Source: Verrucomicrobiota bacterium (GTDB taxonomy: Bacteria > Verrucomicrobiota > Verrucomicrobiia > Limisphaerales > CANJSG01). From it: a DNA stretch of 56,532 nt. Made by a program: the position numbers and the translations under genes. The DNA is taken from the NCBI GenBank assembly GCA_038209745.1, contig JBBQXJ010000023.1, positions 1-56,532 of the forward strand, read 5' to 3'. Positions 1-4,523 of this stretch are shown here, in pieces. The number at the start of each line of letters is the position of its first letter. Position 1 is the stretch's first letter. The notes under the pieces were generated by a model. It ran no database searches and was not told the origin of the DNA. It saw nothing but the letters and a program-made list of their open reading frames with translations.

Positions 1-566
1 GCCGTCAAGCCTGTTTGTCGGAATTATACGGACAACCACGGGGTTTTCCGGGCGAAACGGCCTTCCGCCGACCCTTGTCGAACCGACGCGCGGATCGCCC
101 TCCCAGGCCCCTTCCACGCGGTCATACGCCCTCTGTTTTCCCAAGGCTTTCGGCCACCGTTGCGTTTTTGGAGGGCCATTTTTGAGGCTGGGGATTTGCT
201 TCGATCCGACAATGTCGGAAAACACACCTGTTTCGGTAGCTGGAATTAAGATAAATAATATAAGAACCATTGATTCCGGCATGATTGTGTTCGCTGGGGA
301 ATGAAATTGAACCTCACACGCCAACCAAGGCACGCTTGCTTGATGCGAACGGAATTGAAGCGGAACAAGCTTCTCGGCTGCGAACCATTCACATGAGAAG
401 GAAAGATGGCCTACGTCAGACTGAACAAACCAACGCTATGCCCGTCTCGGGGCGCGGCCCCGGTCAACGCAGGGGCCTGGTTTTGCGAGCTTGTTTCATC
501 CCAGCACGCCCGGTTCGCCTTCGGTCAGGGTTGCGACTCGGTTCCGCGATGTCGCGCGAAACAATA

Positions 567-593
567 CAAAGGGACAGGTCAACAGTTTGAGAA
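567..593 (+). repeat. 27-bp direct repeat, copy 1 (CAAAGGGACAGGTCAACAGTTTGAGAA)
   Basis: 24/27 identical to 1102-1128, first 16 bp identical; marks the left edge of the Rhs fragment. Confidence 0.9.
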
Positions 594-1101
594 CCACTAC
601 CTATTCCTATGGGTTTGACGGGAGTTCCAAGGACGGAGACCTTGCCGCCGTGGCCTATTCCAGCGATCCCGTCTCCACTCCCGGGGCCAGCTACACCTAC
701 GACCGGATGGGCCGCCAGCAGACGGTGTCGCGTGGGGCCACCACCACGACCTTGGCGCTCAACTGGCTCGGGACGCCCATCGCCGAGTCCTACAGCGGCG
801 GCACCCTCGCCGGACTGTCCGTGACCAACGGCTACGACACTTACCTGAGACGGACCAAGCTCTACGCCAGTCCCGCCGCGTTCAGCGTCACCTACGGCTA
901 CGACTCGGCCTCCCGCCTCCAGACCGTCTCCGACGGCACCTATTCGGGCACCTACACCTACCTGCCGAACTCGCCGCTCGTCTATCAGCTGGATCTCAAG
1001 GAAACCACCAATCTCCGGCTTTCAACGATCAAGCAGTATGACACGCTGAACCGGCTCCAGACCGTCTTCAACACCCCGGCCTCAGGGGCGCTGCCCGTAT
1101 T
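594..1101 (+). pseudogene. Internal Rhs/YD-repeat protein fragment
   Basis: Within ORF 491..1120: YTYDRMGRQ, NGYDTYLRR, YGYDSASRL and QYDTLNRL YD-repeat units. No credible start, no Rhs core end or toxin tip; the Rhs-like sequence starts and stops at the direct repeats. Confidence 0.8.
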
Positions 1102-1128
1102 CAAAGGGACAGGTCAATAGTTAGAAAA
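1102..1128 (+). repeat. 27-bp direct repeat, copy 2 (CAAAGGGACAGGTCAATAGTTAGAAAA)
   Basis: Matches 567-593; sits between the Rhs fragment and the transposase (18 bp before its GTG). Confidence 0.9.
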
Positions 1129-1146
1129 ACCTTCGAACTCCATCCA

Positions 1147-2124
1147 GTGGCCTATTACCACTGCATTTCCCGGGTCGTGGACCGCCGGTTTATTTTGGGC
1201 GATGCGGAACGGGAACAGTTCGCGGCCTGGATGCGGCACTACGAAGCCTTCTGCGGGGTGCGCGTCGTCACCTACTGCATCATGTCCAATCACTTCCACA
1301 TTCTCGTGGAAGTGCCGCAACGGCCGGAAACCTTGCCGTCGGACGAAGTGCTGCTGGGCCAGTTGGAGCTCGGCTACAGCAAGGGTTTCGCCCAGACCAT
1401 CCGGCAACGATTGGAGATGTTGCCGGAGGACGAGCGGCAGGCGTTGCGGGAAAGCTTCTTCGCCCGGATGTGGGACCTGAGCGCGTTCATGAAGCTCTTG
1501 AAGCAGCGGTTCACCCAGTGGTTCAACAAGCAGCAGGGCCGCAAGGGCACGTTGTGGGAGGAGCGCTTCAAGAGCGTGTTGGTGGACGGAGCCGGGGAGG
1601 CCTTGGCCACGATGGCCGCTTATATCGATCTGAATCCCGTCAGGGCCGGCTTGGTGGACGATCCTAAGGACTACCGCTGGTGTGGCTACGCGGAGGCGGT
1701 GGCCGGGAAACGTGCCGCCCGGCAGGGCCTGCGCACCGTGATCATCGCCGCGCAACGGGCCGAAGCCACCTTGAACGAGTCTTTGACCCAATACCGCGTC
1801 TGGCTCTTCGGCCAAGGCGACCCGGAAGGGGTGAACCAACCGGGAGAGAGGCCGACGGTCCGGCGCGGCATCGATCCGGAACGCGTGAAGTCCGTGGTCG
1901 GCGACCATGGCAAGCTGGCGGTAACGGACTATCTCCGCTGCCGAGTCCGTTACTTCGTCGATGGCGCGGTTCTCGGCACCCGCGCCTACGTGGACGACGT
2001 GTTTGAGGAGAACCGGGAACGGTTCGGTCCAAACCGCCGGGACGGAGCCCGCAAACTGAAGCATCTCCAGTCCAACGCCCTCTTCAGCCTGCGGGATCTT
2101 CGGGTGCAGGCCGTAGTGGGATAG
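1147..2124 (+). CDS. REP-associated tyrosine transposase (RAYT; Y1/HUH, IS200-like)
   Basis: YYHCISRVVDRRF N-terminus, HUH motif YCIMSNHFHILV, GTLWEERFKS, catalytic-Tyr motif YIDLNPVRAGLV..P.DYRW; start uncertain. Confidence 0.9.
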   Translation: MAYYHCISRVVDRRFILGDAEREQFAAWMRHYEAFCGVRVVTYCIMSNHFHILVEVPQRPETLPSDEVLLGQLELGYSKGFAQTIRQRLEMLPEDERQALRESFFARMWDLSAFMKLLKQRFTQWFNKQQGRKGTLWEERFKSVLVDGAGEALATMAAYIDLNPVRAGLVDDPKDYRWCGYAEAVAGKRAARQGLRTVIIAAQRAEATLNESLTQYRVWLFGQGDPEGVNQPGERPTVRRGIDPERVKSVVGDHGKLAVTDYLRCRVRYFVDGAVLGTRAYVDDVFEENRERFGPNRRDGARKLKHLQSNALFSLRDLRVQAVVG

Positions 2125-2202
2125 CACGGTGACGCCGGCTCCCGTCGGCTCCGTGCTTCTATTCCGCACTTTGAGCGAGAAAAGTCCTTGCCTCTGGATT
2201 GG

Positions 2203-2228
2203 GTCCGCCTCGCCACCTCGGCGGCTAC
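2203..2228 (-). repeat. GTAG-headed REP-like palindrome (GTAGCCGCCGAGGTGGCGAGGCGGAC)
   Basis: GTAG head followed by CCGCC...GGCGG stem, between the RAYT and glgP stop codons. Confidence 0.6.
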
Positions 2229-2232
2229 GGGC

Positions 2233-4437
2233 TCACTTCGGCGCGTAATACTTGGTGGCGTAGTCCTTGACCATGCGGTTGGTGCTGAACTGGGCGGCGA
2301 GCGTGGCCATGGAGTGGCGGATCTTCTGGATCCATTTCCGCGGCACGCCTTGGGGGTCGCGTTCGAAGAAGCAGGGGACCACTTCCTCGGTCAGCGCTTT
2401 GTAGAGGTTGGCGCTGTCCTGCTGGTCCTGTTCCTCGACGTTGTCCGGATTGGAGTCGTCGCCGATGGCGAAGCCGTTGTGGCCGTCGTAGCCTTCCCTC
2501 CACCAGCCATCAAGGATGCTCAGGTTCAAGCAGCCGTGGACGGTGGTCTTCATGCCGGAGGTGCCGGAGGCTTCGAGCGGTCGGCGGGGGTTGTTCAGCC
2601 AGACGTCGCAGCCGGAGACCATCTGGCGGGCGACGTGGATGTCGTAGTTTTCGAGGAAGACGAGGTTGCCCTTGAGCTCGCTGAACTTGCTGAGGTGGAT
2701 GACCTTCTGGATGTATTTCTTGCCCTCGTCGTCACGGGGATGGGCCTTGCCGGCGAAGATGAACTGGACGGGGCGCTGGGCGTCGTGGACGAGCTTCACC
2801 ATGTTGTCGAACTGGTCGAAGATGAGCGGCGCGCGCTTGTAGGTGGCGAAGCGGCGGGCGAAGCCGATGGTGAGCGCGTCGGGATTGAGCAGGTGCTCGA
2901 AGGTGATGAAATCGTCCTGGGCCGTGCGGTGTCCCTGGGCCATGAGCCGTCGGCGGGCGAATTCGATCAACTCGCGGCGGAGCCGATAGCGGAGGGCCCA
3001 GAGCTCTTCGTCGCTGATGAATCCGGGGTCGGTGACCATCTTCCAGAATTCCGGGGTGTCGACTTCCTGCTCCCAATGGCTTGCGGATTTGGCTCTCCAG
3101 AAGCTGGTGATCTCACTGGAGACCGCTCCCGCGAGGGCGGGGTTGGCGGCGATGGCGGTTTTGCGCTTCCAGAAGCGGCGGACGGGGCCCTTCATCCAGC
3201 CCATGATGTGGATGCCGTTGGTGATGTGTCCGATGGGGACATCTTCGACCTTTTTGCCAGGGTAGAGCTCCTTCCACATGTGGCGGCTGACTTCGCCGTG
3301 GAGTTCGCTGACTCCATTGGCAGCACGGGAGAAGCGGAGGGCGAGCACGGTCATGCAGAAGGGCTCCGTCACGTCGGTCGGATCGACGCGGCCCAAGGCC
3401 ATGATGTCGTCGAATGTCACTTTGAGGCCGGTGGGCACCTTGTTCAGCGCATAGCCCATGAGATCCGCACTGAAGCGGTCGTGTCCGGCTTCGACCGGGG
3501 TATGGGTGGTGAAGATGCATTCCTGCGAGGTCAGGGCCTTGGCCTCTTCCAATGATTTGCCGGCAGTGAGCTTCTCGCGGATCAGCTCGAGGGTGAGGAA
3601 GGCGGCGTGGCCTTCGTTCATGTGGAAGGTGGAGGGCTGGTAGCCGAGCGCGCGCAGCAGGCGGACGCCGCCGATGCCCAGGAGGATCTCCTGCATGATG
3701 CGCGTGGTGCTGTCGCCGCCGTAGACCCGGAGGGCGAGATCGCGGAAGCGCGGTTCGTTCTCGGGCCGGTTGGTGTCGAGCAGGTAGACGGGGACGCGCC
3801 CGACGTTGACGCGCCAAGCCTGGAAGAAGACCTGCGTCATCGCGATGACCACGGAGCAGACGACCGGTTCGCCCTTGGGATCCAGGACGGGCTCCATGGG
3901 GAGGTTTTTCGGGTTCAGCAGGGTGTAGTACTCCGTCTGCCAGTTGTCCGGATTGATGGCCTGCTGGAAGTAGCCCTCCCGGTAGAACAGGCTGATGCCG
4001 GCAAAGCCGAGATCCAAATCGCTGGCTGCTTTGGTGTGGTCGCCGGCGAGGATACCAAGGCCGCCGGCGGCGATGGGGAGACTCTCATGGAAGCCGAATT
4101 CGGCCGAAAAATAGGCCACATGGCGCTGGTGGAGCTCGGGCGCGTTCTTTCGGCCCCACGTGTTCTGGTCGGCCATGTAGGTCTCGAAGTCCTTGAGCAC
4201 CTCGCGAACGCGCTTGGCGAACTCGGAATCCATCAACCGGGCGCGAAGCTCGGTCTCGCTCACCTCGTGGAGCACGGCGACGGCGTTGTGGTAGAGGTTC
4301 TGCCAGCCGCGGGGGGAAAGCTCCTGGAAGACTTCCTGGGCGCCCTGGTTCCAAGTCCACCATAGGTTGCGAGACAGCTTGTGGAGGCCGGCGATGGTCG
4401 CGTTGATGTCGCTCAGAGAAACAATGGCAGTGCTCAT
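2233..4437 (-). CDS. glgP: Alpha-glucan (glycogen/maltodextrin) phosphorylase
   Basis: NLWWTW, AYFSAEFG, GGLGILAGDH.K, HMNEGH, FARRFATYKR and PLP-site EASGTSGMK motifs; ATG at 4437 chosen as start. Confidence 0.95.
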   Translation of the reverse strand: MSTAIVSLSDINATIAGLHKLSRNLWWTWNQGAQEVFQELSPRGWQNLYHNAVAVLHEVSETELRARLMDSEFAKRVREVLKDFETYMADQNTWGRKNAPELHQRHVAYFSAEFGFHESLPIAAGGLGILAGDHTKAASDLDLGFAGISLFYREGYFQQAINPDNWQTEYYTLLNPKNLPMEPVLDPKGEPVVCSVVIAMTQVFFQAWRVNVGRVPVYLLDTNRPENEPRFRDLALRVYGGDSTTRIMQEILLGIGGVRLLRALGYQPSTFHMNEGHAAFLTLELIREKLTAGKSLEEAKALTSQECIFTTHTPVEAGHDRFSADLMGYALNKVPTGLKVTFDDIMALGRVDPTDVTEPFCMTVLALRFSRAANGVSELHGEVSRHMWKELYPGKKVEDVPIGHITNGIHIMGWMKGPVRRFWKRKTAIAANPALAGAVSSEITSFWRAKSASHWEQEVDTPEFWKMVTDPGFISDEELWALRYRLRRELIEFARRRLMAQGHRTAQDDFITFEHLLNPDALTIGFARRFATYKRAPLIFDQFDNMVKLVHDAQRPVQFIFAGKAHPRDDEGKKYIQKVIHLSKFSELKGNLVFLENYDIHVARQMVSGCDVWLNNPRRPLEASGTSGMKTTVHGCLNLSILDGWWREGYDGHNGFAIGDDSNPDNVEEQDQQDSANLYKALTEEVVPCFFERDPQGVPRKWIQKIRHSMATLAAQFSTNRMVKDYATKYYAPK

Positions 4438-4449
4438 AGGGAAAAACTG

Positions 4450-4485
4450 GAGGTCGCGACCGAAACTTTCGTCGGCCGCGACCTC
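4450..4485. repeat. 14-bp inverted repeat (GAGGTCGCGACCGA / TCGGCCGCGACCTC) just upstream of glgP
   Basis: Stem with one mismatch and an 8-nt loop, read directly. Confidence 0.55.
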
Positions 4486-4523
4486 GCGGAGGTTATGGAG
4501 GTCCAACTCCGACTCGCAAACGG

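Follow-up and report, generated by a model that had tools for sequence, protein, structure and literature searches.

A repeat pair, an Rhs fragment and a truncated transposase gene

The stretch of DNA analysed here, which we call the window, is a 56.5-kb stretch, contig C23, of a Verrucomicrobiota genome (G000; 140 contigs, 92 % complete), and our subject is a short direct repeat near its beginning together with the transposase gene that follows. The window carries, in this order, repeat copy 1 (564-593), a 506-bp piece of an Rhs/YD gene (594-1099), repeat copy 2 (1099-1128) and a Y1 HUH transposase gene ending at 2124. This layout of repeat, internal Rhs piece, repeat and Y1 gene, proposed in an initial annotation made from the sequence letters, is confirmed by the coordinates and by contigs of a second assembler. 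Assembled from the probable source run, these contigs span both copies of the repeat with zero differences (records 389-651 and 644-2278, depth 3-6); they come from a k=31 assembler fed with the same reads as the assembly, so that they are not independent data. Because the exact sequence common to the motif copies is shorter than k=31 and both copies are bridged, a k-mer chimera, of the kind that the annotation had named among its refuting outcomes, is unlikely.

The two copies are 30 nt long, 87 % identical with an indel, and lie 535 nt apart from start to start. When both strands of the whole window were scanned, their core AAAGGGACAGGTCAA gave exactly two matches, at 568-582 and 1103-1117, both on the plus strand and none downstream of the Y1 gene; the chance expectation is 0.07 matches, and two were reached in 0 of 100 shuffles. 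Folded as single-stranded DNA, the window copies do no better than shuffled sequence (z -0.78 and -0.71); the repeats are direct and non-palindromic, as the annotation had described them. Copy 1 resembles terminal inverted repeats (TIRs) or repetitive extragenic palindromes (REPs) and is of sub-type AACAATAC...TGAGAACC, like the copy at C85:19997, to which it is 95 % identical over 41 nt. Copy 2 is of sub-type TAGTyAGAAAAACCTT, like the copy at C79:18284. The window copies are mutually only the 8th closest of 19, seven other copies being nearer to each of them. Their different sub-types and the lack of nearest kinship exclude a fresh duplication of the target and point to the juxtaposition of two pre-existing motif copies. 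We consider it extremely improbable that a stray Rhs fragment landed in one motif copy and left a target duplication, or that the pair is an assembly artefact: such an origin would suit direct repeats around a single insert and the low depth of the source run (3-6), but the copies are too unlike one another, and each is closer to seven others, though the event is younger than the roughly 2 % divergence of the strains described below; moreover, the k=31 contigs bridge both junctions. A Rfam search of window positions 1-2400 at E <= 1 returned nothing relevant.

The segment between the repeats (594-1099, plus strand) is an internal fragment of an Rhs/YD-repeat gene, comprising about 169 aa of a protein of roughly 1750-2700 aa and readable from TTG 587 to TAG 1118-1120. 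Protein homology to the full-length Rhs genes of relatives covers nt 593-1099 only, which correspond to residues 35-203 of the frame 491-1117; the residues encoded by the repeats lie outside it, and it ends at both repeats, as the annotation had stated. Its observation that the frame runs into a stop codon supplied by the repeat is equally borne out, since copy 2 provides the ending F-K-G-T-G-Q-TAG. In 17 of 41 genomes the piece has counterparts, 41-54 % identical, in the interior of open frames 1136-2731 aa long, and the Pfam RHS_repeat model matches it under its cut-off (E 8e-4). The donor gene expected by the annotation was searched for in G000 and none was found; the sole match in the genome itself is a stretch of 91 nt at 93 % identity, directly after the C85:19997 motif copy, which thereby precedes the same Rhs start as copy 1 of the window.

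Upstream of copy 1 lies an rhs leader module of about 250 nt (304-557, plus strand), 74-79 % identical to sequences in C102, C91, C33 and C16. Elsewhere in G000 this module precedes rhs-type genes with a signal peptide; in the window its gene is absent and the module runs straight into copy 1. In C33 and C16 the leader is followed by MKRWLPFVFLLLL... YD-repeat open reading frames (ORFs), which are cut by the contig ends. Counted over the genome, the module has 5-6 copies at 74-87 % identity. A motif copy precedes it in C110, follows it in C23 and C91, and lies within it at locus L049. The module could be an RNA element, or a promoter with a long leader; Rfam returned nothing for it.

The Y1 HUH transposase gene, of the RAYT/TIRYT type (1141-2124, plus strand), lacks its own 5' end, and GTG 1147 is the first start that can be used. 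For the ORF 1147-2124, Pfam Y1_Tnp gives a match above cut-off (E 2e-12), NCBIfam REP_Tyr_transpos one of 61.6 bits in two stretches, under the cut-off of 80, and NCBIfam transpos_IS200 one of 18.7 bits, where the cut-off is 55. Both HFH, the HUH motif, and the tyrosine motif YIDLNP can be read in the translation, with residue roles that would follow those of the family; compared with IS200/IS605, the protein carries about 150 additional aa in its C-terminal part. The family is very large (7999 of 8000 scored candidates at E <= 1e-20), and its members are named 'REP element-mobilizing transposase RayT' or 'transposase' in the source databases. G000 holds one gene of this Y1 type; a Y1_Tnp match within a 1694-aa frame of C11 was discarded as a spurious long GC-rich frame.

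At the joint with copy 2 the gene has lost its native start codon together with about 11 codons (MRQARLKAPEH). Contigs from three other sediment runs are about 98 % identical over 1140-2600 and, upstream of 1140, diverge into the native coding 5' end. The closest database protein, P0001 (97 % identical, 338 aa), starts MRQARLKAPEHHPVAYYH, and more distant members start likewise. A reading in which the repeat would encode the start of the Y1 protein (MSRETIQRDRS...) was rejected, since natively that protein begins MRQARLKAPEHHP. The absence of the 5' end by comparison with strains 97-98 % identical, combined with two repeat copies of different sub-types, indicates that the window locus is the derived one. 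On the other side, a glgP-like alpha-glucan phosphorylase gene (DUF3417 + Phosphorylase; 2233-4506, minus strand) converges with the Y1 gene and represents native flanking DNA, retained in the 98 % identical strains.

The motif in the genome and beside related Y1 genes

The annotation had recommended a search of the genome and its relatives for the repeat, and this search showed that the repeat is not confined to the window. In G000 there are 20 copies of a motif of about 35 nt with the core AAAGGGACAGG (nhmmer profile, E <= 0.0065; the next match has E 3.5), and the 15-mer alone occurs in 12 exact and 6 one-mismatch copies, with 0 for the reversed control. The conserved unit reads (g)AATAC-AAAGGGACAGGTCAATAGTCAGA-arACC, and the flanks of the copies are otherwise unrelated. 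Copies occur genome-wide in both orientations, 17 of the 20 at most 2 kb from a contig end, vs 12 % of the genome in such zones. Single copies fold no better than shuffles (z -0.78 to +1.05) and have no GTAG tag. Beyond this genome, four of the six other species of the genus carry a 21-mer of the motif and none of 34 genomes from other families in the order has it, and an exact 20-mer also occurs in metagenome-assembled genomes (MAGs) from other projects labelled Chthoniobacter or Chthoniobacteraceae. An adapter or assembly artefact as the source of the motif was rejected, since the copies vary, occur in the MAGs of several projects and are bridged by the k=31 contigs.

Some features of individual copies are worth recording in their own right. 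The only REPIN-like doublet among the 20 copies, at L021 1629-1712 (C122:7620-7710), is inverted, with 16-18 nt between its members and a stem of about 30 bp; the hairpin has -29.4 kcal/mol and z -7.1. In front of about half of the copies, at a gap of 0-6 nt, their first 10-13 nt are repeated as a partial tandem copy, which matches the variant of the copy concerned (e.g. C41:39507, C24:55024 and C85:19997; L055:20-66) and could be a half-site, slippage or a footprint. At C24:54300-55100, two same-sense copies, 689 nt start to start, are flanked by a 46-nt direct duplication at 95.7 %, which resembles an insertion with a long target duplication. Tandem repeats with units of about 105-125 nt adjoin motif copies at C91:16700-17340 and C127:140-570; those of C91 lie between two motif copies, after a patch copied from C29.

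Does the motif accompany the Y1 family outside this genome? With the core (G/T)GACAGG, it is found 40-140 nt upstream of homologous Y1 genes, both in three congeners and, more widely in the order, in G034, G025 and G026. In the three congeneric species (G006, G001 and G004) it stands 45-100 nt before the Y1 5' end. The G006 orthologue, 79 % identical, has it about 100 nt before the conserved GTG, and in G001 and G004 the motif is followed by 45 nt, the ATG and 13 codons of the Y1 gene, and then by a break into DNA bearing a tyrosine integrase. The genes flanking Y1 differ among the species of the genus.

This break has the identical arrangement in L053 (G001 C130; 172-1425) and L052 (G004 C107), with a convergent 339-aa tyrosine integrase after the Y1 remnant. 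The closest G000 copy of that integrase is split, with pieces in C57 and C79, the latter of which terminates at a motif copy. The motif as a site for the nearby tyrosine integrase is not supported: the full-length integrase of C40 has no motif beside it, and a motif is where the closest integrase copy is broken.

In the order, the motif is seen at the edges of complete units. G034 has three copies of an element whose unit measures about 1.1-1.45 kb, with GGTGACAGGCTC... at -121 to -123 and the inverse motif about 232 nt past the stop codon, the latter being a variant in the third copy. In G025 the forward motif stands at -138, and three inverted ones follow at +219, +251 and +284. G026 has 36 motif copies in clusters (reversed control 0), 10 of them beside its two Y1 genes, with spacers of 20-260 nt that are partly tandem duplicates of one another. 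Inverted repeats also flank the gene at loci L126, L134, L166 and L168; in relatives with this arrangement, one copy lies about 50-140 nt before the start and the inverted one 220-420 nt past the stop, and clusters also occur. The Y1 family is multi-copy elsewhere, with 7 matches in G012, 8 in G015, 7 in G025 and 4 in G034. Among 64 metagenome loci carrying relatives 40-64 % identical, a motif match at most 150 nt upstream was found in 31, in either orientation, a count that loses some weight because the profile was partly built from 20 matches in 16 of the same 64 loci; inside the Y1 genes, of roughly 1 kb, there are 3 matches, in 2 of the 64 loci.

In some lineages the motif is a hairpin, ATAAGGGG-ACAGG-CCCCTTAT, and in others CACCTGG-TGACAGGCT-CCAGGTG. 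The stem thus differs between lineages while the loop, which is the core, remains constant, as judged by eye from two stem types; in the genus of G000 the 3' arm of the hairpin is lost. The distance from motif to gene is -42 to -140 in relatives and 44 nt before GTG 1147 in the window, where it results from the deletion of the Y1 5' end.

The presence of the motif upstream of homologous Y1 genes across species, in the order and at those metagenome loci supports the suggestion of the annotation that the repeat is a signal of this HUH enzyme family. By comparison of sequences across genomes, the motif is shown to behave as the cis element of the Y1 family, and the window to be a locus apparently rearranged at motif copies. 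A genus-specific, non-palindromic 35-nt repeat is thereby tied to an enzyme family by cross-genome comparison, and the recognition core (GACAGG) would have been kept while the surrounding stem changed or was lost.

The upstream position, kept at -42 to -140, would also suit a regulatory site (promoter, operator or 5' leader) reused at other genes and without any role in DNA breakage, the Rhs piece being then a leftover of the decay of an rhs locus. Several copies have a purine-rich, Shine-Dalgarno-like tail after the motif, and in three Rhs-fragment copies start codons stand just after it. However, in G034 and G025 a conserved unit is bounded by inverted copies after the stop codon, some clusters comprise tens of copies, the upstream copies are in either orientation, and the copies abut 5'- and 3'-truncated genes rather than gene starts. 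We therefore hold a purely regulatory motif to be improbable.

Copied patches and the origin of the window locus

Several motif copies in G000 adjoin short copies of distant genes. One is a copy of the 3' part of acrB, 373 nt long and 98.9 % identical to the intact gene in C33, which starts 13-15 nt after a core and ends abruptly. Behind other motif copies stand a patch of 277 nt (90 % to C29) and one of 80-85 nt (90 % to C50); in front of one copy stands a patch of 350 nt (95 % to C80), which reaches up to the 5' edge of the motif. Further copies adjoin a C-terminal fragment of an integrase or pieces of YD-repeat sequence; the leader, YD-repeat pieces, or both adjoin 8 of the 20. Overall, 19 of 40 motif flanks have a paralogue elsewhere, vs 51 of 240 controls matched for contig-end distance. 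This enrichment is about twofold and, the region being repeat-rich, not decisive. Two further lines of data were set aside: joints over repeats in the read layout, whose sides of only 20-32 nt could stem from other motif copies, were left unused, and the comparison of empty sites at rhaA (C45) and tig (C75) was uninformative, gene order not being kept in the genus.

The reading that we consider probable combines these observations. The repeat would be the genus version (core AAAGGGACAGG, generally G/T-GACAGG) of a cis element belonging to a RAYT-like Y1 HUH family of the TIRtron/TIRYT pattern; the window would be a rearranged locus, not an array, and the motif copies would be places where DNA was cut and rejoined. 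An rhs leader would have been joined via one motif copy to the 506-bp internal Rhs piece. At its other end this piece would have been linked, through a motif copy of another sub-type, to a Y1 gene now short of its start and about 11 codons. Either of two routes may have led to the cutting and rejoining at motif copies: the Y1 enzyme may have worked on single-stranded DNA of two copies, or nicks at the motif may have been repaired or have led to template switching. By either route, flanks would be exchanged and short copies of distant DNA pasted beside the motif. Such a motif-linked cut-and-join or template-switch process is a possibility.

A number of observations weigh against this rearrangement of the locus by a motif-linked enzyme. 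The window lacks an inverted copy downstream of the gene, and the local motif has no hairpin, which is unlike the substrates of studied Y1 enzymes. In the genus, the motif counts do not neatly track the state of the gene in these incomplete MAGs: G004 has 7 and G001 has 2, both with truncated genes, G005 has 5 with no gene found, and G006 has 3 with the gene present. The 17 copies near contig ends lie in zones that are repeat-rich anyway, where the rate of paralogous flanks in the controls is already 21 %. Neither the acrB donor site nor the right edge of the acrB patch carries a motif, so that a simple exchange from motif to motif cannot explain every patch. Finally, no excision product, circle junction or junction read was seen.

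The annotation had gone further and proposed an array like that of an integron or of spacers, which the Y1 enzyme would build next to its own gene through successive end insertions, each capturing a foreign fragment, with the Rhs piece as such a cassette. The role of the motif as the family's cis element fits this proposal, as do the same-sense clusters beside the Y1 genes of G026, the direct pairs enclosing segments of 535, 689 and 669 nt in C23, C24 and C91, and the patches that copy distant genes whose donors stay intact. But direct-order pairs are found at only these 3 of 17 motif loci, a single motif locus stands beside the gene, and the window holds only two copies, which are not sisters, beside a Y1 gene truncated at the junction. 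Furthermore, the G026 clusters look like REP clusters rather than captured genes, the patches stand on both sides of the motif and in both orientations, and the genome yielded no Rhs donor. The array is not supported as the explanation of the locus, and we judge it unlikely.

Could the motif copies of this TIRYT family be more generally active joints? The Y1 enzyme, or the repair of nicks, might paste copies of 80-500 nt of unrelated genes beside them and swap their flanks, in a Helitron-like shuffling concentrated around rhs loci. We regard this extension as doubtful, if somewhat less so than the array. If it were true, the shuffling of fragments at the motif could create new Rhs reading frames; and if the patchwork were driven by the enzyme, Y1 transposases, whether domesticated or half-domesticated, would give rise to duplicated gene fragments and to Rhs diversification in Verrucomicrobiota.

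Other repeats at the locus and comparison with known systems

Two further elements stand near the locus. A GTAG-tagged REP-like repeat (GTAG + CCGCC...GGCGG; 2205-2228, minus strand) lies between the stop codons of the Y1 gene and of the glgP-like gene and belongs to the unrelated context. G000 has 24 copies of it at <=3 mismatches (reversed control 0). Of 41 genomes, 21 contain this repeat, the highest count being 217, and inverted pairs about 45-50 nt apart are frequent; the counts do not track the presence of the Y1 family of the window. As the partner of the window Y1 gene it was rejected, since it is abundant where that gene was not found (217 copies in G035, 143 in G030 and 119 in G010); candidate partners are two IS200/RAYT-like genes of about 150 aa in C137 and C12. 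In addition, about 140 nt within window positions 1-165 recur, at about 70 % identity, in roughly 10 further places, several of which coincide with contig ends (C90:1, C83:1 and the end of C4); they are probably the margin of a different multi-copy element, one at which the assembly broke.

The insertion sequences of the IS200/IS605 group, such as IS608 and ISDra2, transpose as single strands by 'peel and paste', with hairpin ends and without terminal inverted repeats. By analogy, the Y1 family described here may share with them the Y1 HUH chemistry and, in G034, the short subterminal elements at both ends of a one-gene unit of roughly 1.1-1.45 kb. It differs in that the ends of the G034 units are inverted repeats, that the IS200 model reaches a mere 18.7 bits, and that the protein carries its additional C-terminal part. 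The likeness to integron arrays, or to IS91/ISCR elements and Helitrons, would be one of outcome only: short repeats bound unrelated gene pieces whose donors are intact. The window locus has no integrase, no attC-type folded site and no ordered same-sense array at the gene, unlike an integron, and the IS91/ISCR and Helitron comparison lacks an oriIS/terIS pair and meets patches on both sides of the motif.

In RAYT/REP systems, the repeat is an extragenic palindrome, usually GTAG-tagged. The Y1 gene, single-copy in G000, may resemble a RAYT in this respect, and the inverted doublet of C122 amounts to a REPIN-like hairpin. According to Bertels 2017 (PMC5581495), the frequency of the commonest flanking 16-mer is a RAYT hallmark and takes the values 12 and 14 for groups 1 and 4, to which the 12 exact copies of the 15-mer in G000 come near. 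On the other hand, the window motif is non-palindromic and without GTAG tag, the match to REP_Tyr_transpos is under its cut-off, and the same protein family is multi-copy and insertion-sequence-like in G012, G015, G025 and G034.

The closest likeness is to the TIRtrons or TIRYTs, which Di Nocera 2013 (PMC3733652) describes as RAYT-like genes flanked by TIRs in place of REPs. In that paper, some TIRs stand at about equal distance from the coding sequences and share GGGGWSAS; TIRs form moderately abundant families, occur in dimers or clusters, and are self-complementary in some versions. The system analysed here likewise combines a RAYT-like Y1 HUH gene with short non-REP repeats, which may stand at a set distance from it. 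The relatives L171 and L172 read GGGGACAG, which fits GGGGWSAS, and the window reads AGGGACAG, which agrees at 7 of 8 positions with the consensus as given there. The window repeat is likewise a dispersed genomic family, of 20 copies, found singly, paired and clustered in relatives, as that text leads one to expect. Gene-fragment patches at the repeats are absent from the account in the part of PMC3733652 at hand. The window Y1 gene itself is not flanked by inverted repeats, both copies being upstream and direct, with none downstream and the gene 5'-truncated, whereas the flanking inverted repeats typical of a TIRtron are present in relatives (all three copies of G034, G025, L126, L134, L166 and L168). 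In the published literature we found no account of this particular repeat, the listed matches to the letters of the motif being eukaryotic. In conclusion, the system belongs to a described type, the TIRtrons/TIRYTs, sister to the RAYT/REP systems, and the window locus is a decayed example of that type and no new capture system.

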